Positions 26,250 to 49,501 of a DNA stretch of 64,000 nucleotides are shown piece by piece (position 1 is the stretch's first letter; every line of letters starts with the position of its first letter). The stretch is taken from positions 65,754-129,753 of the forward strand of contig CP011214.1 of assembly GCA_001029755.1 (NCBI GenBank). The letters are read 5' to 3'. The DNA is from Candidatus Woesebacteria bacterium GW2011_GWF1_31_35. GTDB taxonomy: Bacteria; Patescibacteriota; Microgenomatia; UBA8517. The notes beneath the pieces are model-generated. The model did not search any database. It had not been told where the DNA came from and saw only the letters and a program-made list of their open reading frames with translations. The position numbers were made by a program, and so were the translations under genes.

Positions 26250-26294
26250 TGGGCAAATTGTACCACAATTTTACGATAGAAATTATTAAGATAT

Positions 26295-27689: not shown

Positions 27690-27693
27690 TTAA

Positions 27694-33635: not shown

Positions 33636-33709
33636 TGCGGGGTCGTATAACGGCAGTACACATCCCTCTGGAGGATGTTATCTTGGTTCAAATCCAAGCC
33701 CCGCAGCCA
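33636..33709 (+). tRNA. tRNA-Gln (anticodon CTG), CCA encoded
   Basis: A hand-folded cloverleaf: U1-A72 acceptor TGCGGGG/CCCCGCA (as in bacterial tRNA-Gln), anticodon stem CATCC/GGATG with loop CTCTGGA, T-arm CTTGG-TTCAAAT-CCAAG, discriminator G, then CCA. Confidence 0.8.
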
Positions 33710-33865
33710 AGACGTGCAAGTTTGGAACGGTGCCCTCAACATTCACACCTTTAATTTGTGGGTACCTTTAGAATATGGTTGGTTCCTTTTGCTTACTCTG
33801 TCATTTAGGATTCAAACGACAACTCATTTCTCGTAGAGAAGGCCTGTAAGTGATACAATATTGCC

Positions 33866-34561
33866 ATGCTTAGCCTTAAAACATTGGATGTAGACCAGAG
33901 AACGGTTCTTATAATAAAACTCTTACAAGAACAGGTTGTCGATCAACGAAAAAAACTTGCGTATTGGAGAGATCTTACCAAACAACCATCTCAGATAGAC
34001 ACGGGTTATATCTCACAATATTTGCTTAGCTTAATTACATCCATATATGGTGGACTAATGAGAGGTAAAGGAACAGATCTTGATGATGGTTCAGAAATTA
34101 AAGCAGCAAACTTTTTAGATTCTTTAGATAAAAAGGGTGCCACAGCGCCCAGATGGAATTTATCGTCAAATAACTTAAAAACAATGGAGTCCTTCTTATC
34201 ATTCCCGGCTCTATACTTGGTGTCAATGGATCTTAACCCCGCTGGTAAATTTAGAACTCGAGTTTGGAAACTTGACCCAAATAAACACATTCTATTTAGA
34301 AAAAGGTATCTAGAATGGATGGAAAAATTGGGTAAGGTTAAACTTGGAGATCCGGGAAGGCCAGGTATAAATTTTCAATTATTTCCACCTCATAATAAAA
34401 CAGATGAAAGTTTCGCCAGACATGGAAATGGTAGAACAAATGGCTTTTCTCCAATTAAAATCGAACTTGAAGGTGTTCAGGGAGCAAAGAAAATACTACA
34501 TGCAGAAGAGAATAACGGTGTTATAGAAGTTATTTACCTAGATTCCAACATTACTGTATAA
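33866..34561 (+). CDS. putative type II restriction endonuclease (PD-(D/E)xK-like), partner of adjacent methyltransferase
   Basis: A 231-aa protein with the acidic cluster GTDLDDGSEIK (D...ExK). It converges on, and overlaps by 24 nt, the 3' end of an N6-adenine methyltransferase. The assignment rests mainly on genomic context. Confidence 0.3.
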   Translation: MLSLKTLDVDQRTVLIIKLLQEQVVDQRKKLAYWRDLTKQPSQIDTGYISQYLLSLITSIYGGLMRGKGTDLDDGSEIKAANFLDSLDKKGATAPRWNLSSNNLKTMESFLSFPALYLVSMDLNPAGKFRTRVWKLDPNKHILFRKRYLEWMEKLGKVKLGDPGRPGINFQLFPPHNKTDESFARHGNGRTNGFSPIKIELEGVQGAKKILHAEENNGVIEVIYLDSNITV

Positions 34562-36637
34562 ATTTTCGAACAGCAATTTAATATTTCTGTTTGCGTCATA
34601 TTTTTTCTCCTCATAATTCTTTATTTTTTCAGCAATCTTAAGCAGTTCTTGTTCGCTAGAACTATTCTTTTTGGGCCATGGAAGTTTGATATCCATTAGC
34701 TCAGAATCCTTAATTCTATTATGCGAGGATGACGTGCCAGAGGTTAATGATAAAACTTGTTTTAAAACAATATCAGTTAAGAGTAGTGTCTTAAGTAAGT
34801 AAGTATACTTTTCTTCATATGGCTTAATAATTTCAAATTCGCTAGAGCAGGTTAGGATTATGTTTGTATCAAACACTACAGTTACTCTTGGAATTCGTGG
34901 GTTAATCTTAGAAAACAATATGTCACCTGGGTAGCACTCTCTACCTGGAGAAATAGGATTGTATTTCATAACTTCATCTACTTTGATCGTAGAGTCTTCA
35001 TTAATATGTAAAATGCTTATATGCTTGACCGTATCAGAAGCAGATTTCTTTTTTCTATTTTTTGTACAAAACTCAGCGATCTTTTTTAGGGGAATGATTT
35101 CAAATTCCTCTGAGTTAATTTTTTGGAAATTCGACACCGTATGTAATCTATCTGCACTATAGAAATTAGCATTCCATTTCCCATTAATGAGTTGTTCAAA
35201 CGGGAATATTACCACTGAGGGCTTCGTACTTAAAACCTTAATTCCGTGATGTTCCTTTGCTGAATTATATAATTCAGCAATTGTTTCCAAGTCATTAGTT
35301 CCAGAATAAATTTTGGTTGCAGTTCCTACCTTTTCTTTAACTTCATAACCTATATCGCTTGCTGTGGCCATAAATATTCCATTTTGTTGAAATTTTTGCT
35401 CATATGGCTTCTGAATATACAAAATAGAGCATTTAGTTCTAGTTCCTGCTTGCGCAAAAGTAACCGCTGGTAAATCAATAACTCCTCGCAAAATAAACCT
35501 TGTCGATAAAAGGTCTCTATAAACCTCATTCATTCCTTTCGATGACACTATTCCATCTGGAACAACTATTAAAAGTCTTCCGCCTGGCTTAAGAAGTTTC
35601 AAACATCGATCAAGCATGATTAGTTCTGAATAGAGAGTTTTAACATTGGAGTATTCTTTAATTTCTGAAAGAAATTCGTATTTATCAGATTCGGAAATAA
35701 TTTCGTCTATATTAAATTCGGCACCAAAAGGTGGGTTTGTAAGAATTAAATCAACCTTACCCACGTATTGATCTATGAAAGAATCCCCCAATATACTATT
35801 CCCTTGTTGAACCAGTTCAGGATTAAGCCCAGATAACAAATAGTTTATTTTAGACATCCTGACCATCCGGTCGACTTTGTCTTGACCTATGAATCCATTA
35901 TTTTTTCTTAAAGAAATTATTTTGCCTTTATTTTTAATATTCGAAGATTCAATAACTTCGACCAATTTTTTATATGAGTAGATAAGAAATGAACTGACAC
36001 CACTTGTTGGATCAAGAACTATAAACGAATCAGGGTTTTCAGATAAAAGGTTGTCGTAAGAAGACTTGTCGTTTTTAATATCTTTAAATGCAATCTCGAT
36101 AGCTGTGTTCACGACTTCCACCGGGGTCATGTATTGGGCGTCTTCTTTATGGTTTCTAAAGTTATCTCGAACAAAATGTCCAAAAGCTTCATTTAATATA
36201 TCTATATTTTTATTTGTGCCTCCATTCTCTGTAAGATTAATGTTATTAATGACTTTAATAATTTTTATCGCAAAGTCATTATCAGTAGTCTGAATATTGA
36301 GGTGGGCGTTTGATCCAAAAACGTTAGAACCGTCTTTGTTAATGAACATCTTATTTTCAGCTATGTCGGAAAACACAGATTGGAGGGCATTTGCAATGTT
36401 TTTCTTATCCCCAAATTTGGCTAGAGCAACCTTTTCTAAATGGGCTAGATCTAGAGAACTAGAGTTATTTTTAAGATCAAAGTATTTAATAACGAGCAAT
36501 TTAAGTATCTCATCAAGCTTCGTGTTGGCGTCATCATACCGCCCTGTTTTGTGAAATTCTTCTTTTAACTCATCCAGGGCAGTATTAAAATTGTCTAGAA
36601 GAATTTCGTTAGATGGTTTTAGGGTAAGTTGAGTCAT
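34538..36637 (-). CDS. N6-adenine DNA methyltransferase (gamma-class, HsdM-like catalytic domain with fused C-terminal target-recognition region)
   Basis: It has motif X-like AQYMTP, motif I DPTSGVSSFL and motif IV LILTNPPFG. The C-terminal 300 aa are non-catalytic. Total length is 699 aa. Confidence 0.75.
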   Translation of the reverse strand: MTQLTLKPSNEILLDNFNTALDELKEEFHKTGRYDDANTKLDEILKLLVIKYFDLKNNSSSLDLAHLEKVALAKFGDKKNIANALQSVFSDIAENKMFINKDGSNVFGSNAHLNIQTTDNDFAIKIIKVINNINLTENGGTNKNIDILNEAFGHFVRDNFRNHKEDAQYMTPVEVVNTAIEIAFKDIKNDKSSYDNLLSENPDSFIVLDPTSGVSSFLIYSYKKLVEVIESSNIKNKGKIISLRKNNGFIGQDKVDRMVRMSKINYLLSGLNPELVQQGNSILGDSFIDQYVGKVDLILTNPPFGAEFNIDEIISESDKYEFLSEIKEYSNVKTLYSELIMLDRCLKLLKPGGRLLIVVPDGIVSSKGMNEVYRDLLSTRFILRGVIDLPAVTFAQAGTRTKCSILYIQKPYEQKFQQNGIFMATASDIGYEVKEKVGTATKIYSGTNDLETIAELYNSAKEHHGIKVLSTKPSVVIFPFEQLINGKWNANFYSADRLHTVSNFQKINSEEFEIIPLKKIAEFCTKNRKKKSASDTVKHISILHINEDSTIKVDEVMKYNPISPGRECYPGDILFSKINPRIPRVTVVFDTNIILTCSSEFEIIKPYEEKYTYLLKTLLLTDIVLKQVLSLTSGTSSSHNRIKDSELMDIKLPWPKKNSSSEQELLKIAEKIKNYEEKKYDANRNIKLLFENLYSNVGI

Positions 36638-36669
36638 AAATAGATTATTATCTCATTTTCAGATTAAAA

Positions 36670-37989
36670 TCAACTATAACTATCTGCATCAACCTTTTGT
36701 TCTTGATATGCAGATATAAAGCGATCCTTAATACACAACTGTGTATTTAAAGCTTTTACGAGATCTCTTTTTTCTTGAATTGTTCCACTAGTAAGAATAT
36801 ACTTGGCGAAATTTACAGGGTCTAAAGGTCTACTGTTTGGATTAATATCTTGTTCATAAAGTATCTCTTCCCTTATAGATAAATATGAGGATGCGCTTGT
36901 TTTTAGCACTTCAGTAAACTTTAGAAAATTTGGATGGGCAATATTCATAAAGTTTATATATCGCAAAATCTGTTTTATCAGTTTATCCTCACTAATATAT
37001 GGTTCAGTACACTTACTAAGTGGACGTGCACAATGATAGTAAATATGTCTTCTTGGTTCTGCCCATTTTCTCTTTCTCAGTCGATCCTCCCCAATAATAT
37101 TTGATCCGCAATTGCCACACTTAAATAAACCTTTAAATGTAATCACTTTTTCTCCCCAGCCTGATTTTGGGTATGTAATTAACTGTTCTTGTACTTTATC
37201 GAATACTCCTTTAGTAACTAAGGGTGGATGTTTTCCTTGATACCACACTCCACCTCCGACAGGGTATTCAAATCTCCCATAATAGAAGGGGTTTTTGAGC
37301 ATCTGGTAAATCTGACTGAGCGCGACTCCTTTTCCTTTCCGTGTTGTTATCTTAATCTGATCAAACCATCTTTTGATCGTTCTTCCACTATCACCATTCT
37401 TTGCAACCCTCTCAAACATCTCGGTAATAATGTAGCCTCTGTCTGGATCGACAATAATGTCCTTCAATCCACCCATAGCACGGTTGTAGTAGCCGATTGG
37501 AGGTGGCCCAGGTCTCCACCCCATTGAACATTTTGCTCGGATACCTCTTTTAACATTAATCCCTTTCTGGTCGTTCTCAAGCTTTGCTTGCGAGCAGAGA
37601 ATCATAAGTAAGAACTTTTCATTCGGATTATTTGAGAAACTTTGCGAGAAAGTTTTGATTTGATGTAGTTTCTCTTGATCCATAAGATCCACAAGCATTC
37701 CGAGATCTCCGGCGTTTCTACTAAGTCTGTCTGGTGCCCAAGTCAGTATGCCTGTAAACATTCCAGCTCTTATGTCAGTAATAAGCTGACTAAACACTGG
37801 TCTCTGCCCTGACATTTTTGCTGAATGACTTTCTTTGCGGATTTCTTTTATGAAGAAATTTTCTCGTACTGCCATTTCGCTCATCTCTTTAATCTGGGAA
37901 TCTATCGACATTGCTTGACGCTCATCGTCCTCACTCGATTTTCTGGCATAGAGACAGTACTCGGTTGATGTTACTAAGTTTGGTTCCAT
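36670..37989 (-). CDS. large serine recombinase (integrase)
   Basis: The N-terminal resolvase domain has the catalytic Ser context YARKSSEDDERQAMSIDSQ. The recombinase domain, zinc ribbon CGNCGSN...YYHCARPLSKC and C-terminal coiled-coil follow. Confidence 0.85.
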   Translation of the reverse strand: MEPNLVTSTEYCLYARKSSEDDERQAMSIDSQIKEMSEMAVRENFFIKEIRKESHSAKMSGQRPVFSQLITDIRAGMFTGILTWAPDRLSRNAGDLGMLVDLMDQEKLHQIKTFSQSFSNNPNEKFLLMILCSQAKLENDQKGINVKRGIRAKCSMGWRPGPPPIGYYNRAMGGLKDIIVDPDRGYIITEMFERVAKNGDSGRTIKRWFDQIKITTRKGKGVALSQIYQMLKNPFYYGRFEYPVGGGVWYQGKHPPLVTKGVFDKVQEQLITYPKSGWGEKVITFKGLFKCGNCGSNIIGEDRLRKRKWAEPRRHIYYHCARPLSKCTEPYISEDKLIKQILRYINFMNIAHPNFLKFTEVLKTSASSYLSIREEILYEQDINPNSRPLDPVNFAKYILTSGTIQEKRDLVKALNTQLCIKDRFISAYQEQKVDADSYS

Positions 37990-38135
37990 TTGTTTAGAAA
38001 TCTCTTAAATTTATCTGCTTGTTTAAAGAACTTTCCGCAATATTCGCCATCCTTAGTAAGGGCGTACTTATAGAAGTAGTACATACACATGTGGAGGTGT
38101 TTGAGAGCCTTTTGCTTTTGATCCTGATTATTCAT
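37974..38135 (-). CDS. small Cys/His-containing ORF overlapping the recombinase start (candidate accessory/directionality factor)
   Basis: A 53-aa hand-translated ORF (MNNQDQKQKALKHLHMCMYYFYKYALTKDGEYCGKFFKQADKFKRFLNKWNQT), co-directional with the recombinase and overlapping its start by 16 nt. It is below the ORF-track cutoff. Confidence 0.2.
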   Translation of the reverse strand: MNNQDQKQKALKHLHMCMYYFYKYALTKDGEYCGKFFKQADKFKRFLNKWNQT

Positions 38136-38189
38136 CAGGTACAAGGTACCGCAAAGGTGGTGGAAGTCTAGCCCTCAAAAATACTATAG

Positions 38190-38399
38190 CTAGGAGATAT
38201 CTATGGAGATTTTCAAAATACGAGCGATCTTGCTCAAAACTTCTAGGGAGGGGCCGTTTCTGCCTTGCTCTATATAGCCCATATACGCTCGACTTATACC
38301 AACCTTATCCGCAAGTTCTTCTTGGGTTAGCCCAATTTGATTGCGTCGTTTCTGGATTTTCTTTCCCAATACCTTTGGTAATTTTGCATTCTTGCGCAT
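38190..38399 (-). CDS. XRE family helix-turn-helix transcriptional regulator (Cro/CI-like)
   Basis: The HTH IGLTQEELADKVGISRAYMGYIEQGRNGPSLEVLSKIARIL is present, and the protein is 69 aa. Confidence 0.8.
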   Translation of the reverse strand: MRKNAKLPKVLGKKIQKRRNQIGLTQEELADKVGISRAYMGYIEQGRNGPSLEVLSKIARILKISIDIS

Positions 38400-38435
38400 G
38401 TGTTAATTGTCGAAAACATTGAACTCATAGTCCAC

Positions 38436-38497
38436 TTAGCCACAGTTAGCAAATAGCCTTGAAAGAAGCTTGATTTTATGCTAAATGTAAGTTAGCA
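38436..38497. promoter_or_regulatory. candidate operator region: TTAGC(A/C) half-sites including palindrome TGCTAA-N7-TTAGCA (38479..38497)
   Basis: It lies in the divergent intergenic region between the XRE gene and 38526..39377. Half-sites sit at 38436, 38446 and 38492, and there is a perfect 6-bp inverted repeat. Confidence 0.3.
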
Positions 38498-38525
38498 TTC
38501 AGGATATAAGAAAGGAGGTGAAAAT

Positions 38526-39377
38526 ATGAAAAAACTACTATTAATTATCGGAGGAGGATTCCTGTTAATAATCTTTCTAGGTCTAGTTGGCAAGAACTCC
38601 CCAAGCGAACAGTCAAACGGCCAAACAGAGGTCAAAGAGCAAAAAGAAGCAAAGCTGGCGTTTGTTTTCGATGTTCCAAGCCTTATGGGCAAGAATATAG
38701 ATGAAATCAAGAAAGATCTTGATTCCTATAAAAAGAAGTCCTTGGAACCAACTTCGGATCAAATGAAGCTGGGGGTTAAAGAATGGGAGGTTGAGTTTGA
38801 GAAGGACGGAAAGAGCCTATTGGTGACGTACGACATCGCTACTAAAAAGGTTAAGGACTTCTTTATTAGTTCTGATGATCCTTCTGGGAAGACTAAGGAC
38901 AAAAATCACCTATTGGAGCTCGGAAATCTCAAAGAGAACGATTCAAGATATAAAGTCGAATTTGTTAAAACTCTTAAAGATCCTTCATTCTTTACAGGAG
39001 TGAAAATAAGCCCGACTCTAAAATATGAATATGAAATACTCTCACGAGTTGAAGGAAAAACGGATGAGAATATTAGTATTCTGATCAAAGTTGGAGAAGC
39101 TGATCCACAAGGAATCGCTACTGAGGTTCAGAAAAGTTGTAAAAAGCAATGCAACATAAGCCTTTTTGATGATAAAAAGGCATTCGAGTTAGATGCTGAA
39201 TATACCAATAAAATACTTAGTTACGACGTAACCGTAGCTGAGAGAGAGGCTTGGAAGAAAAAGAACACCGTATTCCTAGCTGATCACCTAGTTGCAACTG
39301 TTGGATACAGTTTCGGACCTTACGCAGAATATCCACTTAAGGACTCTTACTACAGAGAGCTTAAGGGCGAGAAATAA
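38526..39377 (+). CDS. hypothetical secreted/membrane-anchored protein
   Basis: It has an N-terminal signal anchor MKKLLLIIGGGFLLIIFLGLVG and a Lys/Glu-rich soluble domain. A strong SD (aaggagg) sits upstream. Confidence 0.4.
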   Translation: MKKLLLIIGGGFLLIIFLGLVGKNSPSEQSNGQTEVKEQKEAKLAFVFDVPSLMGKNIDEIKKDLDSYKKKSLEPTSDQMKLGVKEWEVEFEKDGKSLLVTYDIATKKVKDFFISSDDPSGKTKDKNHLLELGNLKENDSRYKVEFVKTLKDPSFFTGVKISPTLKYEYEILSRVEGKTDENISILIKVGEADPQGIATEVQKSCKKQCNISLFDDKKAFELDAEYTNKILSYDVTVAEREAWKKKNTVFLADHLVATVGYSFGPYAEYPLKDSYYRELKGEK

Positions 39378-39414
39378 ATTACAACAGAAAGATCGAGAGG
39401 TCTTTCTGTTGTGC

Positions 39415-40944
39415 CTAGAACTTCATATCGAGCATTCCGGCAGTGATAGGCTTTGACAGGTCTCTATATTCTCCAAACATGTCCATTCCCCAGTGTGAGA
39501 CTGGTGGTCTTGGTGGCCCAGCGGATTTGTAAGTCGGTCTATCTGACTCCAAAATTTTCAAAATAATGATAGTAAAGGCATCTACGAGGTCATCGTGTTT
39601 CTCTATACCAAAATTAACAATTTGGCTGATAAGATTCTCTGCTCCGTGTTGAGGGAATAAGACTTTCCCTTGGCGAATGTAAGGGGTGGCCATCTCCAAC
39701 CTGGTCTGCTTATTCATTCCAGAGATTGGTACTGCTTCAGCCATTACTTTTTCGAGGGTAAGCTGTTGGACTAAAGAAACCTGATAATTTACATTTTCTA
39801 CATAGGCTGTAGGCACTCTTTTGAAGTCTTGATTTAATAAATCACAAACCCGTTTTATTTCTACGATAGTATCGGTGAAATTAATTCGTTTGTTTACGAT
39901 GTATGGCAAGATATAAATCTTCAAGTCGTCACCGTAGCCAGTTACTATAAAGGGAATGAGGGCTGTAAAATCGGCTGTACTTTTTTCTGAGATGGCAAGA
40001 TCCACGCCAATCCCAAGCAACCAATAATTTCGCAAATCAGGTAACACTTCGTAATACTTTGGCCAGCTTCTTTGGACAATTCGCTTGTCGTCGGAAATAA
40101 ATTTCAATAAATACTCTCGGTACCAAGCGGATTCGTCGGCTACCTGTCGTCTCTTGGTTTCTATATGCATCATGGATGGATACTTGCCCGGCCAAGCAAT
40201 ATTGTCGTTCTTATCCAAAAGAGGGTACTCTCGGTAAACTCCATCCATTTTTCCAGAGTTAATGCTCTCTTTAAGTCGCATCATGAGAGAATCTTCGTGT
40301 AAGAGGTTTCCCACGATAACTATTTTTGTATTCATTTCGCCAATAGGCATGGCTTCTCCGGTATACCAGTTCCACAGCTTATCTCGACCCTCTCTGGTTT
40401 TGACCGATTCTAAGTCCTCTACGTCGTCAATGACGATAAGGTCAGGCCTGTATTGGTAGTGGCGAAGCCCTCGGATACTTTCGCTTTGGGAAATGGCCGA
40501 GATTCTTGCATTGTATTGAGGGATAACAAACGAATTAGATCGCCACTCATCAGCAACCTCGGTAAATGGCCCAAAGTCTCTTATTAGTAGCTCATTGGAA
40601 GAAAGCTCTTGCTTAATGTTGGTCAAGATCTGTTTGGAAAGGTCTTGGGTTTGACTCACAACCAGCGTATATTTTTTGGCTGGCCTGCCAAGCATTGCCC
40701 AGATAGGGTAAGCCAGAGTGGCAATGGTGGATTTAGCTGAACCTCGAAAAGCCGTTATCACAACCTTTAAGATCCCTTCGTTTTGAAGGAGGTTAAATAT
40801 TTCTTTTTGGAACGGAGCTGTAGGACAGGTTATGTAGTGGGTAAAATACGTGACAAAGAACCACGAGAAGCTCTCCCTTGTGAGCGCTCTCCTAAAATTA
40901 GGGTCTATTTGAATTAGTTTGATTATTTCTTGATGGTCATTCAT
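39415..40944 (-). CDS. terL: phage terminase large subunit
   Basis: The N-terminal ATPase has the Walker A-like AFRGSAKST and Walker B LIVIDDVED. The C-terminal RNase-H-like nuclease has acidic residues (GVDLAISEKSTADF, KHDDLVDAF). Length is 509 aa. Confidence 0.75.
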   Translation of the reverse strand: MNDHQEIIKLIQIDPNFRRALTRESFSWFFVTYFTHYITCPTAPFQKEIFNLLQNEGILKVVITAFRGSAKSTIATLAYPIWAMLGRPAKKYTLVVSQTQDLSKQILTNIKQELSSNELLIRDFGPFTEVADEWRSNSFVIPQYNARISAISQSESIRGLRHYQYRPDLIVIDDVEDLESVKTREGRDKLWNWYTGEAMPIGEMNTKIVIVGNLLHEDSLMMRLKESINSGKMDGVYREYPLLDKNDNIAWPGKYPSMMHIETKRRQVADESAWYREYLLKFISDDKRIVQRSWPKYYEVLPDLRNYWLLGIGVDLAISEKSTADFTALIPFIVTGYGDDLKIYILPYIVNKRINFTDTIVEIKRVCDLLNQDFKRVPTAYVENVNYQVSLVQQLTLEKVMAEAVPISGMNKQTRLEMATPYIRQGKVLFPQHGAENLISQIVNFGIEKHDDLVDAFTIIILKILESDRPTYKSAGPPRPPVSHWGMDMFGEYRDLSKPITAGMLDMKF

Positions 40945-41356
40945 GTTCTTCCTTTTCCTGTGGGGCTAACGCCACCATTTCTAATGCTTTATTTAATAAT
41001 TCTTTTTGTTCGTCGGTTAACTCAATATCTTGGTTTTTATTTGAAGCCATGATTTCTATTTTGGTGGCATAGGCGGGGTGGTGATGTTTAAGCCAGAAAA
41101 TTATGGCCGTCATGTTTTTGTCCTTAATGGCACTCATCATTTGAGACTCGGCCATGTCATTAACAAGCAGGTTGCCATCTAACAATGCCTGGTCACTGGC
41201 TTGAGCAAATTCAGAGTGATTCTTGCGCCAACGATAGTAGGTTGCCCTACTAATATTTGCTTTTTCACAGGCTATCTGAACGATCGGAGTTTTCTTCAAG
41301 ATCTCCAAAAGTTGCTCTTTATTTTTAGATTGGCGTTTTACAATTGATTTATCCAT
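40937..41356 (-). CDS. HTH protein, putative terminase small subunit
   Basis: The N-terminal HTH is IACEKANISRATYYRWRKN. Its position immediately upstream of terL is typical of terS. Confidence 0.45.
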   Translation of the reverse strand: MDKSIVKRQSKNKEQLLEILKKTPIVQIACEKANISRATYYRWRKNHSEFAQASDQALLDGNLLVNDMAESQMMSAIKDKNMTAIIFWLKHHHPAYATKIEIMASNKNQDIELTDEQKELLNKALEMVALAPQEKEEHE

Positions 41357-42668
41357 AGATTTTTTTGGCTTTCTGACTTGTAAGTTTTTCCCAACGCTTT
41401 ATGATTACTTCCGTATATACAGGAGACTTTTCCATGATGTAGCATCGTCGTTTCATTTTGGTTGCTGCAATGAGGGTTGAGCCTGACCCCCCAAAGGGCT
41501 CGACAATTAAATCGCCACGCTTGGTAAGCATCTTTATGTATGGAATGAGGATCTCTACTGGCTTGGTGCCAAACACAACGCCTTGGCCCGAATGTTTCTC
41601 GTCTGAAGCATTAAACTCTATAAAATCGGTTGGTTGATTCTTCTTTCCATGTTCATAGCCTTCCCAGTGTGGCTTACCTGATGTTGCATATAATGCAGTC
41701 TCGTATTCGTTTTGCAAAAGCTCTTCTTCCGCATCTTTATTGATTTGTTTACCCTCACTCGTTCCAACTATAGCTATATCGTATTTTGAGAAAAATTTAA
41801 ACTTTGCCGAGAAACCTTGATGCCTGTTGGGTAATCTCCATATCAACATGTTGCGCACCTTCCAATACTTCTCGATCTCGTCCCACATGGCCCGGGTGTT
41901 CTTCCAATTTTCGTACGAGATGATACTGAAGTCTGGTTTTGCTACCTTAGCGATATTTGCCATCCAAAGAGATATAAAGTTGTCTGGCAAAACATCAGTC
42001 TCTAAATAGCGACGGTTGCGCTTGGCCCCGAAACCCGTTACGGGTTTTCCGTGACGTTTTGCGCCAACGTAATCGAGCAAATAAGGTTCATCTGTCAGAC
42101 ACATATCCGCTTTTTCACCATTCATAAGTTTTAAAATATCTGCTTCTATGGTGGAATCACCGCACATCAGGCGATTTTCGCCAAGAGCGTAAGTATCACC
42201 TTTCTTTGTATTAATCTGATGGATATTCAACTTTAGAAGCTCCTTTTCAAGACTAAATTCTTCGGGAACATCGACATCGAAAATACCGTCAAGTTCCCCA
42301 CTGGAAAAACCAATATCTGCAAGGAACGACTCATCGAACTTAGCCAACAAGTCCCAATCGAATTCTCCAACATTTTTATTACTCCGGATGTTATATTCAG
42401 TAAACTCACCATTTGTAAGTTTCCTATTTGGAAGTCTTACATCAATTTCTTCCTCGCCCCTTCCTAAAAGCATCATTATTTTTATTCGCTGGTGGCCAGC
42501 CACAATTTTATTGTCAGTATCAATGGCAGGAATTTCGACTAAATTGAATTTGTTTAGACTGTCTTTTAACTTCTCTGCTTGCTCATTAGATAATTTACGC
42601 GGATTTGATTCATAAGGAACCAATTCCTTAACCTTCCGCTTTTCTGTGTGCCAAATTAGATTTCCCAT
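41349..42668 (-). CDS. ParB-like nuclease domain fused to DNA methyltransferase (N4/N6 class)
   Basis: It has an N-terminal ParB/Srx motif region (KELVPYESNPRK...AGHQRI). The methyltransferase motifs are a DPPY-like TDEPYLL and a C-terminal VEPFGGSGST, an arrangement common in phages. Confidence 0.7.
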   Translation of the reverse strand: MGNLIWHTEKRKVKELVPYESNPRKLSNEQAEKLKDSLNKFNLVEIPAIDTDNKIVAGHQRIKIMMLLGRGEEEIDVRLPNRKLTNGEFTEYNIRSNKNVGEFDWDLLAKFDESFLADIGFSSGELDGIFDVDVPEEFSLEKELLKLNIHQINTKKGDTYALGENRLMCGDSTIEADILKLMNGEKADMCLTDEPYLLDYVGAKRHGKPVTGFGAKRNRRYLETDVLPDNFISLWMANIAKVAKPDFSIISYENWKNTRAMWDEIEKYWKVRNMLIWRLPNRHQGFSAKFKFFSKYDIAIVGTSEGKQINKDAEEELLQNEYETALYATSGKPHWEGYEHGKKNQPTDFIEFNASDEKHSGQGVVFGTKPVEILIPYIKMLTKRGDLIVEPFGGSGSTLIAATKMKRRCYIMEKSPVYTEVIIKRWEKLTSQKAKKIYG

Positions 42669-42756
42669 ATAGGGTTATTCTGGGCTTCTTTAGGAATCAT
42701 TAAAACGGGAATGGAGGAGGAAAATGAGGGGAATTGGAGGAAATATGGAGGAAAAA

Positions 42757-43287
42757 CTAGTGTGTTACAACACTAATGTTTATGAGCTTAGATCCATGAC
42801 CTCTTGTACGTCTCATTTTTACAACAAAGCCATCTTGCTTCAGGGCTTTAATGAAATCTTTCCTTATATATCCGACCCCCTTAGCATCATCTGCAACTTC
42901 AATTTGCTCTTTAACTATCTTATCGCTAACAAAATTATCTTCGCTTGTAAGCAAAAGTTGAAAGTATTTACCCGCTTTAGTACCAAGATTTATACGACCA
43001 AGTATATTGACCGCCTGGTATACAAATGTACCCTCCACTGTAATCTTAAATCCAAAATTCTCCGGGGATGAGTAGTTGACGAGATCAACATTATCCATTT
43101 CCTTCGAATATTTCGATATACTGCTAACTGGTAAATTGATATCTAGCTTTGGAAGCAAAAGGTTTGGAATTGTCATTATGCCTGCAAAGTTCTGAAGGAT
43201 TTCCTGCACAGGAGCAAAGATATTGGGCAAGAGCTCCAATTTTTCAAAATCAGTATCAGTCAGTTTTGTGTTTCCTAGTCTAGGCAT
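42757..43287 (-). CDS. hypothetical protein
   Basis: A 176-aa protein immediately downstream of the LexA-like gene, with no motif. Confidence 0.3.
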   Translation of the reverse strand: MPRLGNTKLTDTDFEKLELLPNIFAPVQEILQNFAGIMTIPNLLLPKLDINLPVSSISKYSKEMDNVDLVNYSSPENFGFKITVEGTFVYQAVNILGRINLGTKAGKYFQLLLTSEDNFVSDKIVKEQIEVADDAKGVGYIRKDFIKALKQDGFVVKMRRTRGHGSKLINISVVTH

Positions 43288-43288
43288 A

Positions 43289-43903
43289 TTATTCAGATAA
43301 TTTTCCTAAAACTTTTCCCTGGATCATAATTTCCCTGGCAATTATCGGTTTGTATTCAGAATTATGACTCTCAGGCAGGAGAACTACATATTCACTCATC
43401 TTTTTAAACCTTTTTAGGGTTGCTGTCTCTTCGTTAGGGTTGAACGCCACTACAATATCGCCATTGTCAGGCACTGGTTGTGGAACAACTATGACTATAT
43501 CTCCAGTGTTGAGGCCAGCCTTGGACATACTGTCTCCTTTGACTCGTAGTAAAAACGCATCACTTCGGCCATGGAGTTCAGATTTTGAAACATCACGATA
43601 GCCTTCGATGTTTTCCTGAGCGAGGGCTGGTTGACCAGCTCTAATCTCGCCAACCAAGGGTAGGTTTATTACTTCCTGATCTGGGAGAGGAGCGAGTAGA
43701 ATCTTTATAGCTCTACGAGCCTGTTTGTCACGATGTATATATCCTAAATCCTGTAATTTCTCTAACTGAATGGATACGCCTCGAATAGATTTAATCTGAG
43801 TTGCCCTCATTATTTCGGGTATCGATGGCGAGTAGCCATTCTCTGATTGAAACTTAGTGACAAAAGAAAAAACTTTCCTGACGTTGTCGGTGAGATTATT
43901 CAT
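43289..43903 (-). CDS. LexA-like repressor (wHTH plus S24 peptidase)
   Basis: It has the N-terminal LexA DNA-binding fold (ENGYSPSIPEIMRATQIKSIRGVSIQLEKLQDLGYI) and a cleavage-site-like AGQP. It also has the catalytic Ser in GDSM and Lys in LKRF. The start was taken at the MNNLTDN ATG (43903) because the ORF track's start is a TTG. Confidence 0.75.
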   Translation of the reverse strand: MNNLTDNVRKVFSFVTKFQSENGYSPSIPEIMRATQIKSIRGVSIQLEKLQDLGYIHRDKQARRAIKILLAPLPDQEVINLPLVGEIRAGQPALAQENIEGYRDVSKSELHGRSDAFLLRVKGDSMSKAGLNTGDIVIVVPQPVPDNGDIVVAFNPNEETATLKRFKKMSEYVVLLPESHNSEYKPIIAREIMIQGKVLGKLSE

Positions 43904-43923
43904 AGTGGTAATTAATTCTACCA

Positions 43924-43952
43924 TTGACAATTCTACTTAGCAAGTATATAAA
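43924..43952 (+). promoter_or_regulatory. near-consensus sigma70-type promoter TTGACA-N17-TATAAA
   Basis: The -35 TTGACA is at 43924..43929 and the -10 TATAAA at 43947..43952, with exact 17-nt spacing, about 50 nt upstream of the DUF2188 gene. Confidence 0.4.
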
Positions 43953-43964
43953 TAATGTTAGACT

Positions 43965-43983
43965 GCCTCCTAATATAGGAGGC
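43965..43983. promoter_or_regulatory. perfect palindrome GCCTCC-N7-GGAGGC (candidate operator)
   Basis: It has 6-bp inverted arms and a 7-nt AT spacer, and sits just downstream of the predicted -10 (TSS region). That places it between the LexA-like gene and the DUF2188 cassette. Confidence 0.35.
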
Positions 43984-44003
43984 TTATTAGTAAGGAAACA
44001 ATT

Positions 44004-44243
44004 ATGGCAAACTACAACGTAACAAAAAATTCGGATGGAGGGTGGGACGCAAAGCGAGATAATGCCCAAAGATCGAGCTTCCATGGAAATACCCAACGTG
44101 AGACGGAGACTGTAGCTAAACAATTTTCAAAAAACTCCTGCGGAGGAGAAGTTAGAATCCAAGGTAGAGACAATAAATTTAGGGACAGCGACACTGTTCC
44201 TCCAGCTCATGACCCCAATCCTCCCAGAGACAAGAGACACTAA
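44004..44243 (+). CDS. DUF2188 family small protein
   Basis: It matches the DUF2188 consensus over its full length (NSDGGWDAKRDNAQRSS...GNTQRETETVAKQFSKNSCGGEVRIQGRDNKFRDSDTVPPAHDPNPP). An SD (aagga) is upstream. Confidence 0.6.
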   Translation: MANYNVTKNSDGGWDAKRDNAQRSSFHGNTQRETETVAKQFSKNSCGGEVRIQGRDNKFRDSDTVPPAHDPNPPRDKRH

Positions 44244-44244
44244 T

Positions 44245-45306
44245 ATGGCATACGAAATAGACTATATACCAGTAGGCGATGGAGAAAAAAGCGGAGACGC
44301 TATTTTACTTCGTTTTGGAAATCTAATTGGCCCGCGTTCTGAGCAAACGGTGGTTGTTATTGATGGAGGTTTTAAGGATTCTGGAGAAAAAATTGTCGAA
44401 CACTTGAGTACATACTACGGCACAACTGAAGTCGACCTAGTGGTGTCGACTCACCCAGACGCGGATCATGCCTCCGGTCTATCCGTCGTCTTAGAGAACT
44501 GTACAGTAACCAACTTACTCATACACAAACCGTGGGAACACGCGGAAGACATTAAAAGTCTCTTTAAAGATGGCCGAATCACGGCGTCGGGGTTAGAAGA
44601 GAAGCTGGAAAAGTCTTTGCAGCATGCAAGTGATTTAGAAGCGATGGCAAGAGAAAAGGGCATTAAGATTGTTGAGCCCTTCCAGGGGGTCACCGGATTC
44701 TCAAACGTAATGCTGGTATTGGGTCCCTCTCAAGAATATTATGAAGGGTTACTTGCCCTATTCCGATCTACTCCAAGTCCAATTGAGTCATTAGCTAAAT
44801 TATTGGCACCAGTACAGAAAGCTGCTGAAGAAGTGATTAATTGGCTAGAGGACACTTTCGAAATAGATTTACTTAATGATGACGATGACACTACCTCAGC
44901 AGAAAATAATTCCAGCGCAGTCATTCTTTTTACTATTGATGGACACAAACTCTTATTCACTGGAGACGCTGGAAAGACGGGGCTGTTGTCGGCGGCAGAA
45001 TATGCTGAGGGTCAAGGTATTGCCCTTACAGACCTCAGCTTCCTTGACGTTCCCCATCATGGTAGTAAAAGGAATTTAAGTAGTAAGGTCTTAGCCAAAA
45101 TTAAAGCCGGTACAGCTTTTGTCTCCGCCGCTGAAGGTTCCCCAAAACATCCAGCAAAAAAAGTCACAAATGCTCTTAAAAAACATGGTGCTCGAGTTTA
45201 CGTCAATAATAAGGGAAACACCATACAACACGGACACAATGCCCCAGATAGATCCAATTGGGGTCCGGCACCGGAGGAAATTTTCCATAGCAGGGTTGAG
45301 GAATAA
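44245..45306 (+). CDS. MBL-fold metallo-hydrolase (ComEC C-terminal domain-like)
   Basis: It has the N-terminal YIPVGDGEKSGDAILL (VGxGDs..I), the metal motif VSTHPDADHASG (HxHxDH), and a late FLDVPHHGSKRN. The start follows the DUF2188 stop by 1 nt. Confidence 0.7.
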   Translation: MAYEIDYIPVGDGEKSGDAILLRFGNLIGPRSEQTVVVIDGGFKDSGEKIVEHLSTYYGTTEVDLVVSTHPDADHASGLSVVLENCTVTNLLIHKPWEHAEDIKSLFKDGRITASGLEEKLEKSLQHASDLEAMAREKGIKIVEPFQGVTGFSNVMLVLGPSQEYYEGLLALFRSTPSPIESLAKLLAPVQKAAEEVINWLEDTFEIDLLNDDDDTTSAENNSSAVILFTIDGHKLLFTGDAGKTGLLSAAEYAEGQGIALTDLSFLDVPHHGSKRNLSSKVLAKIKAGTAFVSAAEGSPKHPAKKVTNALKKHGARVYVNNKGNTIQHGHNAPDRSNWGPAPEEIFHSRVEE

Positions 45307-45307
45307 T

Positions 45308-46003
45308 ATGAAATTTGATAGATACGATATCTTTGCGCGAGCTCTTCCAGCAGTTCTTGCGTCGGTACCATTTTTTATCCTCCACTACTTTTTATTTAGC
45401 CCAGCTTTAGGCGCATTTTGGGGAGAACTTCTTGGACTCAAAGTTGCCTCTGATGTCACATTTGTTTTTGCCTTACTATTTTTGGCGATGCAGTTTAATC
45501 GCATTGTATCGAAGGAAGTCTTTGAAAAAAGAATGTATGGTGACGGATTAAAATTTCCTACAACTAATTTCCTTCTTCATCTTGATTCATATTTTTCATC
45601 TGACTACACCCAAAAGATCCACAATCGGATCGAGTCTGACTTTAGTATAAATATCCCTACTCGTTACAGTGAAACAAAGGATGAAGACAAATCGAGGAAG
45701 CTTATAGCTGAAGCAATTAGCCACATTCGCGTAAAGGTTGGTAAAGGAAACTTGCTTGGACAACACAATCTGGAATATGGTTTTGTACGTAATTTCTCCG
45801 GTGGCAACGTTCTTGCAAGTGCTGTATCTATGTTGGATATAATTATTTTTAAGTGGATTTACCCAAACAATACGGCACTCTCCGTTTCGATTGTTAGCTT
45901 TTTTATCTACTTCACTCTTAGCCTCCTTGCAGGAAAGATGATAGAAAGCGTTGGTAGAAGTTATGCCAAGGTTCTGATTCAAGAGTATATGGCTCTGCAA
46001 TGA
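45308..46003 (+). CDS. hypothetical membrane protein (2+2 TM helices flanking a soluble core)
   Basis: The start is 1 nt after the MBL stop. TM segments are found at the N-terminus (ALPAVLASVPFFILHYFLF, VTFVFALLFLAMQF) and C-terminus. Confidence 0.4.
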   Translation: MKFDRYDIFARALPAVLASVPFFILHYFLFSPALGAFWGELLGLKVASDVTFVFALLFLAMQFNRIVSKEVFEKRMYGDGLKFPTTNFLLHLDSYFSSDYTQKIHNRIESDFSINIPTRYSETKDEDKSRKLIAEAISHIRVKVGKGNLLGQHNLEYGFVRNFSGGNVLASAVSMLDIIIFKWIYPNNTALSVSIVSFFIYFTLSLLAGKMIESVGRSYAKVLIQEYMALQ

Positions 46004-46004
46004 T

Positions 46005-46586
46005 ATGTTTCTATCTGATAAAGCGATTCAAGAGTTTAAGGACATAGTTAAAAAGGAAAAAGGGGTTGAGTTATCAGATGCCGAAGCTCGGGATCAGGGA
46101 GAAAGACTTGTTTCATTTTTCGAAATATTAATGGAGGTTTCTCAGGTAGAGCTTAGACGAAAGAAAAGACTCGAGAAAGAACCGGAAGGTTTTCATTTAA
46201 ATGAAGGTGAGGGCCCGTATAACTGTCGGGTTTGTTATGAATCTGTATCGGGAAAAGGGGTGTGGTGGGACTTAAATGGTATTAAATGCCTAGATTGCCA
46301 AAGAAATATAAACGAAAGCATTATCCCAGCCGAAATATGTGATAACGACAAATTATGGATAAAAGACTGGCAATTTCAGTCTGATTATGACATTCATCCT
46401 TCAACAAGAAGAAAACTCATCAGAACAGGCTTATTACATGGCCGCGATCTAAAAAGAGACAATGGATCAATATACTATACTGTTTATCTGGTAAACGAGA
46501 ATTTGGAGTTCTTGAAAAAATATCCTAAAAAAAGAAAAGAAAATGTAGAGTTTATCGCAGTTGGGAAAAATAAGGTTCAACTATGA
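46005..46586 (+). CDS. hypothetical zinc-ribbon protein
   Basis: It has CRVCYES...CLDCQ (four Cys) and a basic C-terminus, and is translationally coupled to its neighbours. Confidence 0.4.
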   Translation: MFLSDKAIQEFKDIVKKEKGVELSDAEARDQGERLVSFFEILMEVSQVELRRKKRLEKEPEGFHLNEGEGPYNCRVCYESVSGKGVWWDLNGIKCLDCQRNINESIIPAEICDNDKLWIKDWQFQSDYDIHPSTRRKLIRTGLLHGRDLKRDNGSIYYTVYLVNENLEFLKKYPKKRKENVEFIAVGKNKVQL

Positions 46587-47305
46587 TCGACATGGCAAAG
46601 TACTGGTATTCTCCAGCCTACGTAATCCATATGGCTGAGGAAATAATTAAAGTGTATGGTCAAGAGAATATAGACAAAGATACTCTTTTTCAGAAGGTTG
46701 GAGAAATGAAATGTGCAGCAATCATGTTACTTGGTTTACATAAAGCATTTGGTACACATTTTTTCATGCAGTCTTCTCTAGATCAGTTCCCTGATGTGTG
46801 GACGCTTTATCAGGAGGAAATTCCAGACAAAAATGTTGATACAAAATATCAAACCGTTGAAGTAGTCACATACGAAACACATACCAGCATTCCAGTAGTC
46901 GACTTTATCTTAAAAAATAAGCTGGTAAATCCCAAGAAGGCATACGATGAAGAAACAATAATACTTTGTTATATAAGAAAAGCTGGTACTTTTATTGACT
47001 TTGACCTTCTCTATAAAAAACTTGGACAGCATAAATTCAAACCAAGTAGAGTTTTTGTCATAGGTAATAAAATGGAAAATCCTCAAATATTTAAATTAAC
47101 CCAAGTTTGGCCAGTTATTCATCATGAGGATATAGACTATGTTGAGGCAACAAAGGCATACCCTCTGCCTCACAGAAGGTTTTTCAAAAAAGGTATATCA
47201 AAAAAGATTAATAACAAATTTGCTACTTCTAGAGTAAGACCTAACCCCTATGAGGTTTTTAACCTCGGTGAACAGTTATTAAAGAAGAAATATAATGTTC
47301 ACTAA
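46583..47305 (+). CDS. hypothetical protein
   Basis: A 240-aa ORF overlapping the previous gene by 4 nt, with no motif. Confidence 0.35.
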   Translation: MIDMAKYWYSPAYVIHMAEEIIKVYGQENIDKDTLFQKVGEMKCAAIMLLGLHKAFGTHFFMQSSLDQFPDVWTLYQEEIPDKNVDTKYQTVEVVTYETHTSIPVVDFILKNKLVNPKKAYDEETIILCYIRKAGTFIDFDLLYKKLGQHKFKPSRVFVIGNKMENPQIFKLTQVWPVIHHEDIDYVEATKAYPLPHRRFFKKGISKKINNKFATSRVRPNPYEVFNLGEQLLKKKYNVH

Positions 47306-47315
47306 AACGAATAGC

Positions 47316-47972
47316 TTAAGGAGTAGGAACATCTGACCAACCCTCTTTACCCTGAGTGAATTCTCTTCCGTCTGGTGCCACACATCTTCTTATTCCTGTT
47401 CTCTCGTAATATTGTTCTGAGGAGAGTTGACCGCCATCGCGGCCAATGGCTTTAGCGCAATCTTCGTATTTTTTAACCCATGAGTATTTTTCTTTGAGTG
47501 TAGGTGCTAAATCGCCACCAGGAAGAAGTTCAGGATCAAAACTACTGTCAGGACATCCATGGTTGCAGGAGTTGCGTTCACCTTCATTTAGTAATACATC
47601 TGCAATTTGCCAAGCAGTCATACTCTGAGAAATCATATATCTAGCTTCTCGGTCAATGGTGTTACTGCCAATGGTAAGAGCATTCCCTTTGCCTGAAGTA
47701 TTGTCTTTTGTGTGCTCTAAAGCGTATTTAAAAGCTTCTTCGTCTTTAACGAATCCGTAATAGCGAAGATCGCCAGCTACAGCCGTTAAGGTTTTATCTT
47801 TACTAATCGTAAATCCAATTGATTGAGTATTTTGTCTTGGAGCCCCAAACTTACTTTGCCAATTTCTATACCAGAGAGTAGACGCGAAGATTGCAACTAT
47901 TACAAGGACTGCCAAGTATATGAGCCAGCGTGGGAATGATTTAGTCTTTTTTGGCATATAGTATCTAATCAA
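47316..47972 (-). CDS. membrane-anchored protein with MltG/YceG N-terminal-like domain plus Cys-rich tail (island copy)
   Basis: It has an N-terminal TM and LRYYGFVKDEEAFKYALEHTKD...TAWQIADVLLN, which is paralogous to 48303..48821. The sequence is GC-rich. Confidence 0.4.
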   Translation of the reverse strand: MIRYYMPKKTKSFPRWLIYLAVLVIVAIFASTLWYRNWQSKFGAPRQNTQSIGFTISKDKTLTAVAGDLRYYGFVKDEEAFKYALEHTKDNTSGKGNALTIGSNTIDREARYMISQSMTAWQIADVLLNEGERNSCNHGCPDSSFDPELLPGGDLAPTLKEKYSWVKKYEDCAKAIGRDGGQLSSEQYYERTGIRRCVAPDGREFTQGKEGWSDVPTP

Positions 47973-48008
47973 GTATAGAACGTACCGCTAATTAGTTCCA
48001 CAGGCAAG

Positions 48009-48142
48009 TATATCAAACTACATCAGTATCAATTTGTGAAACAGCCTTTTATAGTGTCTCATTTGTCTCGTTTAGCCTTGAAATGATACACTTAGCTTGC
48101 AGGGTTATAAGGATCTAATGGGTCTCGACCTGTATGCTCAGC
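48009..48142 (+). repeat. conserved about 133-nt non-coding element, copy 2
   Basis: See copy 1. The tandem 9-mers here are GTCTCATTT and GTCTCGTTT, at 48056..48073. Confidence 0.7.
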
Positions 48143-48302
48143 AAGTATATGCACCCCTAGTGACCCGGGTGCCTCGAATAGCCCGTGTTTTCCGTCTAAA
48201 GAGTCATTTTGGAAAGTGAGAATTATAACCATCACCTACCCTCAAAAATCCTTCGTTCGAATCCCTACTTTGTTTGAGTTTATGGGATATAATTGACTAG
48301 AT

Positions 48303-48821: not shown

Positions 48822-48916
48822 TTTTGTTAAAAGTATTACTCAGAAAATATCACTAATAATTTCCTAATTTGCTCCAAATGATCAATAAAATTAAAATCGT
48901 ATGTTAAAATCAGATA

Positions 48917-49426: not shown

Positions 49427-49501
49427 ACTTAATAATTTATTCCAAAAATAGTTCCAAGTGATCAGACAAAAAAATATTAATGCTACAATATAGAATAGAC
49501 A

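Follow-up and report, generated by a model that had tools for sequence, protein, structure and literature searches.

The window analysed here is a 64,000-nucleotide stretch of the genome of Candidatus Woesebacteria bacterium GW2011_GWF1_31_35 (GenBank assembly GCA_001029755.1, contig CP011214.1, positions 65,754 to 129,753 of the forward strand), a member of the Candidate Phyla Radiation (CPR), or Patescibacteria. It is part of a cellular chromosome, with genes for SecA, Lon, GreA and several aminoacyl-tRNA synthetases. Directly behind a tRNA-Gln(CUG) gene of this tiny genome lies a segment, 33710-48143, which is a real integrated mobile element. Its 14,434 bp (ends placed to +/-3 bases) encode a large serine recombinase (LSR), a restriction-modification (RM) pair, a terminase module and a LexA-family repressor, all of which had been named in an earlier reading of the sequence alone (the sequence-only reading below) and all of which are present according to Pfam, PHROGs and NCBIfam. 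The central proposal of that reading, a foreign element with mobile-element genes and without virion genes, inserted site-specifically at the 3′ end of tRNA-Gln, is supported by the evidence presented here. The element and its target comprise the following features, with coordinates and strands as in the window; L numbers denote loci that were compared with it.

33636-33709, + strand: tRNA-Gln(CUG), the integration target, with encoded CCA (ARAGORN, Rfam)
33710-33865: element-side arm P′ adjoining tRNA-Gln, AAGACGTGCAAG..AACGGTGCCCTCAACATTCACACC (compared with L011, L024, L010 and L021)
33866-34561, + strand: MamI-family type II restriction endonuclease, cargo (PF09567, E 1.2e-47; PADLOC REase_II; GC content 0.34)
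34538-36637, - strand: N6-adenine DNA methyltransferase with a specificity-like C-terminal region (PF02384, E 2e-26; PADLOC MTase, Specificity_I)
36670-37989, - strand: LSR, the integrase (PF00239 Resolvase, PF07508 Recombinase, PF13408 Zn_ribbon_recom)
38190-38399, - strand: Cro/CI-type helix-turn-helix (HTH) regulator of the HTH_3 family, a conserved family component (PF01381, E 8e-17)
38526-39377, + strand: 283-aa protein whose N-terminal segment is hydrophobic, encoded between TerL and the HTH gene (no family match)
39415-40944, - strand: terminase large subunit TerL, full length (phrog_38, E 3.6e-84; PDB terminase matches)
40937-41356, - strand: terminase small subunit TerS (phrog_309, 4044, 4102)
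41349-42668, - strand: fusion of a ParB-N domain and an N6/N4 DNA methyltransferase (PF01555; phrog_498, E 6.5e-70; phrog_620)
42757-43287, - strand: 176-aa protein between LexA and the methylase (no family or PDB match)
43289-43930, - strand: LexA-family repressor (TIGR00498, 160.9 bits, cut-off 110.95; PF00717, PF01726)
43925-43985, + strand: putative TTGACA-17-TATAAA promoter-like site and perfect palindrome GCCTCCTAATATAGGAGGC, read from the sequence
44004-44243, + strand: DUF2188 protein, PADLOC candidate PDC-S16 (PF09954; PDLC04941, E 7e-17)
44209-45306, + strand: metallo-beta-lactamase-fold (MBL) protein, PADLOC candidate PDC-M48B (PDLC04676, E 6.3e-87, full length; PF00753)
45308-46003, + strand: 231-aa hydrophobic protein (gene call in L006; hydrophobic stretches in the translation)
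46005-46586, + strand: 193-aa helical, Cys4 zinc-ribbon and winged-helix-like protein (AF2 pLDDT 89; 92 homologues)
46583-47305, + strand: 240-aa protein (51 homologues; AF2 pLDDT 84.5, pTM 0.86)
47316-47972, - strand: YceG-N-like membrane protein, terminal gene of the element (PF02618, weak; tblastn)
48009-48143, + strand: conserved non-coding far-end motif of ~130 nt, arm P of attR, ending ...GACCTGTATGCTCAGC

All three domains of an LSR score above their cut-offs in the recombinase, which has a YARKSS motif in its translation and relatives at 42-84% identity that adjoin convergent tRNA genes. Likewise, RE_MamI lies beside N6_Mtase in the arrangement of a type II RM system, and the two form a putative cognate pair. 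The translation of the LexA-family gene contains, in addition to the expected domains, an Ala-Gly cleavage site (VGEIRAGQP) and both members of the catalytic dyad (the serine of GDSM and the lysine of LKRF), and LexA-like genes fill the equivalent slot in L013, L024, L029 and L075. This lexA is inside the element and is missing at this locus in L034, a relative considered below. As for the 'LexA-controlled cassette' of the sequence-only reading, there is indeed a promoter-like site with a palindrome between lexA and the DUF2188 gene, upstream of the DUF2188-MBL operon, but reading of this intergenic region revealed no recognisable LexA box, which leaves LexA as only a presumed controller. Two scaffolds of one ENA assembly terminate in this same intergenic region. 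Breaks of the island contig in two assemblies, at the lexA/DUF2188 palindrome and at a TerS/TerL deletion site (see below), were considered as possible signs of excision and are now read as assembly effects.

The remaining genes are partly cargo and partly components shared with related loci. In L024 and L029, too, a DUF2188 gene is accompanied by a LexA-like gene. The MBL protein has weaker matches to LmuA and Avs1a MBL, and the A component of PDC-M48 had no model match in the neighbouring open reading frames (ORFs) tested; its assignment as a 'tail protein' (phrog_7043) was rejected since the match was limited to an internal, MBL-like stretch of a profile with 1077 positions, and PDC-M48B fits better. 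The slot of the 283-aa protein, which has homologues in L007 and L023, is filled elsewhere by Sie-like lipoproteins (phrog_4980 and phrog_8545, superinfection exclusion) or by DUF4352 proteins, and the 176-aa protein has a 38%-identical homologue in the equivalent slot of L013. The HTH_3 regulator is found at 79-93% identity in L007, L024, L038 and L039, while synteny places the ParB-methylase immediately 5′ of TerS throughout the family. At the far end, the 193-aa protein is a conserved family component paired with the 240-aa gene (L010, L022, L025-27 and L035) whose model has no significant match in the PDB; the model of the 240-aa protein has weak best matches to PD-(D/E)XK nucleases (MspJI, Mrr and UL24; Foldseek E 6e-3 against the PDB and 1e-2 against BFVD); and the YceG-N-like protein recurs at 78% identity in L010 and L022. 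For the 231-aa protein no family match was obtained with an overlapping ORF. The YceG-N-like gene (47316-47972) and the flank gene 48303-48821 are head-to-head paralogues, 51% identical over 80 aa and very unlike in GC content.

Base composition sets most of this segment apart from the chromosome. In 43 host windows of 1 kb the GC content has a mean of 0.307 (standard deviation 0.024, maximum 0.365), against 0.401 (range 0.359-0.444) in the eleven 1-kb windows of 37-48 kb, and the profile is thus far from uniform. The same is seen gene by gene, with a GC content of 0.308 overall and 0.155 at third codon positions (GC3) in host genes, and of 0.400 and 0.376, respectively, in the core genes of the island, from which the RM pair adjoining tRNA-Gln differs (0.340). 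A jump had been proposed right at the CCA of tRNA-Gln. The shift is real (0.40 vs 0.31), but its sustained part does not start there, because a short peak of 0.40 at 33.6-34.0 kb, tRNA included, is followed by an RM segment (33710-36669) of only 0.343, and the lasting rise extends from ~37.0 kb, within the 3′ third of the recombinase gene, to 48.2-48.6 kb. The predicted direction of codon usage was borne out, CAG making up 0.38 of the Gln codons in the island vs 0.17 in the host and GAG 0.39 vs 0.14 of the Glu codons, with A-ending codons still prevailing in the island.

The ends of the element could be read from related loci and from a relative without the insertion. Comparison with L011, L024, L010 and L021 puts the attL junction at the CCA end of tRNA-Gln (...CCCCGCAGCC|AAGACGTGC...). 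The post-CCA arm (AAGACGTGCAAG..CCCTCAACATTCACACC) likewise follows tRNA-Gln in L011 and L024, and in L010 and L021 the tRNA-side arm stands directly after the end motif, which is an attP-type junction. The end motif itself recurs in L010, L013, L016, L021-L024 and IMG/VR loci, at the far end of related elements, and its last bases mimic the end of the target tRNA (GCTCAGC vs CCGCAGCC for Gln). The relative, L034, is a JGI metagenome contig whose host backbone is 93% identical on both sides and which lacks both this island and a second, smaller one described below. Its tRNA-Gln has no element behind it; a 2.65-kb segment with ABC transporter genes is found there instead, homology to the right of tRNA-Gln resumes only at window position 49470, and the sequence after tRNA-Gln in L034 (AGCAGTGCACCCACATGACCGAG..AAAAGCCC) resembles that after window 48143. 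It is because of the end motif, the P′ arm junctions in related loci and this resemblance that the element is delimited as 33710-48143, and the limits given in the sequence-only reading, 33636-48142, fall within a few bases of these junctions. From them we predict an attP in which ...GACCTGTATGCTCAGC is joined to AAGACGTGCAAG... and an attB in which ...CCCCGCAGCC is joined to AAGTATATGCACCCC....

Other explanations of the end sequences were considered. The end motif has no match in Rfam, its fold energy is not better than that of shuffled sequences (z -0.42) and a simple scan for sigma-70 promoters and terminators found neither, because of which it is treated as a DNA site and no longer as a candidate RNA gene. 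A search for a tRNA 3′ fragment displaced to the far end, of the kind known from tyrosine-integrase islands, found no duplicate in the window. A tRNA at 48250-48270 was also discarded, there being no ARAGORN call and the GTTCGAATCC string spotted by eye being incompatible with a T-arm. At four places (L010 17160-17290, L013 12440-12525, L021 2560-2600 and L026 4346-4365) the end motif is followed by the tRNA-side arm and then by cargo and recombinase; such attP-type junctions inside long contigs could stem from elements arrayed in tandem or from assembly across circular forms. The body of tRNA-Gln(CUG) (33636-33709 in the window, 9881-9954 in L034) is only 70% identical between the two sequences, with a break at position 12, against 94-98% for its upstream flank, a divergence that leans towards the idea of an element-associated tRNA discussed below. 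On the other side, window 48144-49469, with the YceG-like paralogue and GrpB, is missing in L034, which has the ABC transporter genes. The difference between the two at the tRNA-Gln locus looks like a replacement polymorphism at a hotspot.

Cleaner evidence for the site of insertion comes from the second element of the same family, which lies upstream in the window behind another tRNA gene:

24750-24823: tRNA-Glu(CUC) (ARAGORN, Rfam)
24824-27826: decayed element of the same family, 3.0 kb, following tRNA-Glu(CUC) (comparison with L034)

What is left of its recombinase is a C-terminal remnant of 123 aa (25089-25460), 98% identical to the recombinase of L022, accompanied by a pair of paralogous nucleoside 2-deoxyribosyltransferase genes, a gene for an alpha/beta hydrolase and an end motif at 27694-27826, which is 96% identical to the one at 48009-48143 over 46 nt (27730-27775). 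The tandem paralogues (25457-25858 and 25863-26249) share a 64-nt stretch near their 3′ ends that is 80% identical. Since this element is cleanly absent from L034, all of attB, attL and attR are readable, and the comparison with a relative lacking the insertion thus gave an att site here: attB, from L034, is GGGGTCAC|CATTTTAAACTATAAC (right side also CATTTTAAAC), attL is GGGGTCAC|ATATATCGC and attR is ATGGCTCAC|TATTTTAAAC. Insertion replaced the encoded CCA (TCACCA -> TCACAT), and the end motif of this copy mimics its own target (GGCTCAC vs GGGTCACC for Glu). Only TCAC is common to the sites, in keeping with the short common core and lack of long direct repeats of serine integrases. Read in this way, the unoccupied site puts the crossover at the tRNA's CCA end. 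Co-occurring with the window sequence is L004 (GCA_000989165.1), which is 100% identical to it except for missing 40820-40975, 156 bp comprising the 3′ end of TerS and the 5′ end of TerL. It also lacks 27597-27727, 131 bp beside the end motif of the decayed element.

The same orientation and site recur in the recombinase family at large. Among 46 informative LSR ends, every tRNA gene found within 4 kb downstream of the recombinase 3′ end is convergent with it (16/16), 12 of them lying within 1 kb. The targets are Gln-CUG, Gln-UUG, Glu-UUC, Glu-CUC, Lys-CUU, Ser-CGA, Ser-GCU, Ser-GGA, Asp-GUC and Arg-GCG. Comparison shows that the insertion point of the family is the CCA end of tRNA genes, with an arm of the element mimicking the tRNA 3′ end. 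According to an earlier report, serine integrases were not known to target tRNAs (PMC7192596). Both tRNAs next to the islands of the window have a C34 anticodon, and the sequence-only reading had suggested that they belong to the elements. This is not supported: tRNA-Glu(CUC) is base-for-base identical in L034, which lacks the adjoining island, and the targets of the family include many tRNAs without C34. A bias towards C34 anticodons, present in a first small sample, vanished in a larger one. Because tRNA-Glu(CUC) is unchanged without the island and there is no clear C34 rule, the tRNAs are regarded as targets and not as cargo.

Relatives of the LSR and of TerL were drawn from GTDB genomes, from IMG/VR, whose 'viral' labels are predictions, and from exact-protein look-ups. 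The order ParB-methyltransferase, TerS, TerL, (cargo), LSR was found in ~60 loci from Patescibacteria genomes and IMG/VR, with no portal gene after TerL. In its full form it reads [~240 aa], ParB-methyltransferase, TerS, TerL, a small reverse ORF (Sie-like, DUF4352 or SHOCT), HTH_3, optional cargo and LSR, and this form is present in L009, L013, L022, L023, L024, L029, L032 and L035, whose TerL identities range from 86% down to 40%. In IMG/VR the first three genes are co-oriented in 56 loci and followed by a co-oriented LSR in 38/48 that are informative downstream, the LSR starting <=340 bp from the TerL stop in 18 of these 38. The family can be described as a conserved core (the ParB-methylase-TerS-TerL operon and a small HTH regulator, with the LSR at one end and the 193-aa/240-aa gene pair, the YceG-like gene and the non-coding motif of ~130 nt at the other) and variable cargo in two slots. 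Here the cargo consists of the MamI-type RM pair, the DUF2188 and MBL defence candidate and the 283-aa protein; at other loci there are RM systems of types I, II and III, Shedu SduA_C, genes for efflux and redox functions and pairs of LexA-like and DUF2188 genes. Named hosts are Woesebacteria, Levyibacteria, Roizmanbacteria, Beckwithbacteria, Saccharibacteria and 'Patescibacteria group'. That the island belongs to this conserved and selected family of LSR/terminase elements is a conclusion of which we are highly confident.

Some of the loci deserve a separate word. Four carry the label uncultured Gammaproteobacteria, which could not be checked and may be a binning or labelling error. Among GTDB species representatives the recombinase of the window has no 100% match (best 77%), and the island may be absent from the representative of this species, or that representative may be a different assembly. 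Six IMG/VR loci (L044, L045, L047, L051, L053 and L097) have two tandem TerL paralogues between TerS and recombinase, ~45-48% identical to the TerL of the window and falling in separate tree groups. Finally, L028/L092 (IMGVR_UViG_3300020195_001307) consists of a 9,117-bp unit repeated exactly in tandem, in which two methylases and TerS are accompanied by a 401-aa TerL, the end motif and RNR, PfkB and NUDIX genes; the contig was considered as a packaged concatemer, an idea that was dropped, and is not used as evidence because a truncated TerL lies beside RNR, PfkB and NUDIX genes.

The terminase genes of the family bear the marks of use. Compared with L007, TerL has a synonymous divergence (dS) of 0.77 and a non-synonymous divergence (dN) of 0.009, i.e. 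a dN/dS of 0.011, and the ratio is also low for TerS (0.05-0.07), the HTH regulator (0.04), the ParB-methylase (~0.10) and the YceG-like gene (0.09). The acidic motifs of the TerL ATPase and nuclease are invariant in an alignment (A4) of TerLs down to 49% identity. Because of the low dN/dS and the invariant motifs, TerL is judged to be under strong purifying selection and the terminase genes to be working genes. Related TerLs outside the family belong to phages. In all IMG/VR loci with a TerL 35-45% identical (11/11) a portal homologue is found downstream, in several with protease and major-head homologues, and one of these true phages, L088, has the order ParB-methyltransferase, TerS, TerL just as in the island. 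In a neighbour-joining tree the portal-less TerLs form one clade beside the portal-followed TerLs of phages, because of which the capsid-less layout looks like the product of one old event followed by wide diversification. The 'heavily reduced prophage' that had been entertained for this island is, in the sense of recent decay, at odds with a capsid-less layout that is old and conserved across loci.

The absence of structural genes was examined in several ways. In Pfam, PHROGs and NCBIfam, none of the island ORFs matched a family of portal, capsid, tail or lysis proteins, so the island does not have the gene set of a functional temperate tailed prophage. As a positive control, L084 and L099, with TerLs of 40-44% identity, do show a portal (phrog_2662, E 1e-119 and 4e-96), a protease and a major head protein after TerL; searched by tblastn, these portal, protease and capsid proteins had no homologue in the window or in LSR-bearing loci, structural-protein homologues being confined to L080, L083, L084, L086, L088 and L098-L103. 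The original statement that no capsid, portal or tail genes are recognisable was therefore upheld by both approaches. The 240-aa protein is the only soluble ORF of unassigned family that is big enough to conceal a capsid fold, and its predicted fold, compared by Foldseek as had been suggested, appears to be unlike that of a capsid or portal.

Among known elements, this one works most like a phage-inducible chromosomal island (PICI), yet it fails the definition of PICIs with respect to primase-replicase and TerL. PICI core components have been defined, with tyrosine and serine integrases treated as exchangeable (PMC10085698). As in PICIs such as the SaPIs, an island of ~14 kb lies beside a conserved host gene, with an integrase at one end, repressor-type regulators, its own TerS and accessory or defence cargo, and without capsid, tail and lysis genes. 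Unlike in PICIs, the integrase is an LSR, primase-replicase and capsid-morphogenesis genes were not found, a full-length TerL adjoins TerS in an island that should have no other structural or packaging genes, the host is a CPR bacterium and, in place of AlpA, MerR or Stl, there are an HTH_3 regulator and an autocleavable repressor of LexA type (some relatives have MerR/HTH_17). Known PICIs contribute TerS only, whereas capsid-forming PICIs (cfPICIs) contribute the whole capsid (PMC10085698). The latter encode both TerS and TerL (PMC10085698), as this island does, but also capsid, protease, portal and head-tail adaptor/connector proteins, none of which was found here with Pfam, PHROGs or tblastn. 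P4-like satellites and prophage defence hotspots resemble the island in their variable slots with RM and other defence systems, while their core genes are unrelated and integrase family and host phylum are different. The phiRv1 and phiRv2 elements of Mycobacterium tuberculosis are also alike in being ~10-kb, LSR-integrated, prophage-like elements with a terminase gene, and unlike in having capsid and prohead protease genes and in integrating into a repeated element and not a tRNA gene; a ParB-methylase/TerS/TerL operon is not known from them. CPR bacteria are also hosts of complete prophages, of which only a few have been reported, e.g. a Roizmanbacteria prophage of ~27 kb (PMC6509639). Temperate CPR Caudoviricetes, together with L084, L088 and L099, have a related TerL (35-45%), and L088 the same three-gene order, but in these phages portal, protease, major head and tail genes follow, whereas in the island the recombinase stands in the place of the portal.

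A packaging enzyme and an integrase are present and shell genes are not, and it is because of this combination that carriage in the particles of another phage seems likely. We therefore favour, as the probable though by no means assured explanation, a helper-dependent, satellite-like element that is also a carrier of defence genes. The helper-needing, PICI-like option had been raised in the sequence-only reading, and the conserved gene order, the TerL dN/dS of 0.011 and the portal-less TerL clade speak for it. According to this model, the element would be kept silent by the LexA-type and/or HTH repressor until induced by DNA damage or infection by a helper phage. The recombinase, aided by a putative directionality factor, would then excise it, and its own TerS/TerL complex would recognise its DNA and package it into procapsids supplied by a helper of a related phage lineage. 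Repression, induction, excision and packaging are the parts of this scheme that we infer. Extending it beyond this locus is more tentative, the odds being in our opinion slightly short of even: Patescibacteria, or at least Microgenomates lineages, might harbour widespread satellites with a complete terminase and ParB-methylase but no capsid genes, whose LSRs would direct insertion to the CCA end of a tRNA gene because their attP arms imitate the tRNA 3′ end, and which would shuttle defence systems in procapsids stolen from related CPR phages.

The best of the other explanations, to which we give perhaps one chance in several and which we thus consider unlikely, is that of an integrative defence island that is not transduced, in which the terminase would act as a decoy or poison against invading phages or process the island's own DNA, with spread by some other route. 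Such an island would account for the RM pair, PDC-S16 and PDC-M48B, for the type I/III RM, Shedu SduA_C and Sie-like genes of relatives and for the lack of recognised replication or capsid-remodelling genes; moreover, the two tandem TerL paralogues of six IMG/VR loci are odd for simple packaging. However, TerS, TerL and the upstream ParB-methylase have been kept together as in the true phage L088, and the ATPase and nuclease motifs of TerL are both invariant, which fits a working packaging motor. The two roles are not exclusive either, since interference and self-packaging coexist in known satellites.

A defective prophage remnant, i.e. a temperate phage at tRNA-Gln that has lost everything from portal to lysis genes and whose inert remainder is decaying, is quite improbable and is already disfavoured for the family. 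Decay does occur, as illustrated by the recombinase fragment at tRNA-Glu, the 156-bp TerS/TerL deletion of L004 and the truncated TerL and split recombinase of L026, and the related true phage L088 has the same order of ParB-methyltransferase, TerS and TerL. Nevertheless, the supposedly truncated layout is found in dozens of loci, at different chromosomal sites and with TerL identities down to ~40%, the gap between TerL and recombinase is often only 70-340 bp, all island ORFs of the window are intact with TerL under the constraint described above, and portal-less TerLs make up one clade. That the region is not mobile at all, but host DNA of odd composition or a one-off homologous import from a GC-richer relative, would agree with a block that differs from L034 by replacement (from position 12 of tRNA-Gln to 49470, opposite 2.65 kb of other genes) and with a flank gene, 48303-48821, paralogous to the terminal gene of the island, yet it is highly improbable given a full recombinase, matching arm sequences at both ends, elements of this type at other tRNAs in other genomes, the clean tRNA-Glu insertion relative to L034 and related loci that are not syntenic, and it is contradicted by the att-site comparisons.

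Several observations weigh against a satellite that inserts at tRNA genes and travels with a helper. No helper phage has been identified for this host, and no primase, helicase or Rep was found for any island ORF with Pfam, PHROGs, NCBIfam and PADLOC as scanned. At 30/46 LSR ends there is no tRNA in the available sequence. Searches for the empty attB of the tRNA-Gln copy (TCCAAGCCCCGCAGC N0-3 AGTATATGCACCCCTAG) in JGI metagenome contigs and for a circular attP junction in IMG/VR gave no match. The terminase module can be lost, because L004 has a deletion across the TerS/TerL junction, and the tRNA-Glu copy is plainly decayed. Lastly, the 176-, 231- and 283-aa ORFs were checked by sequence profiles only, and the TerL tree is a rough neighbour-joining tree without support values.

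These findings bear on a wider question, since gene movement among the small-genome CPR/Patescibacteria is poorly understood. No paper describing this family was found in the literature searched, which was incomplete, and it is apparently a large, undescribed family. A conserved and selected element that lacks capsid genes yet has its own complete packaging motor would represent a new type of satellite, and, if the interpretation is true, no satellites of CPR bacteria would have been described before these, which would also be a clear case of serine integrases targeting tRNA ends. Because the junctions are readable at base resolution, they yield testable attP/attB pairs for a group of enzymes that are of interest as genome-engineering tools. 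For the bacteria themselves, such an element would point to a major path for the spread of defence systems within the CPR radiation.

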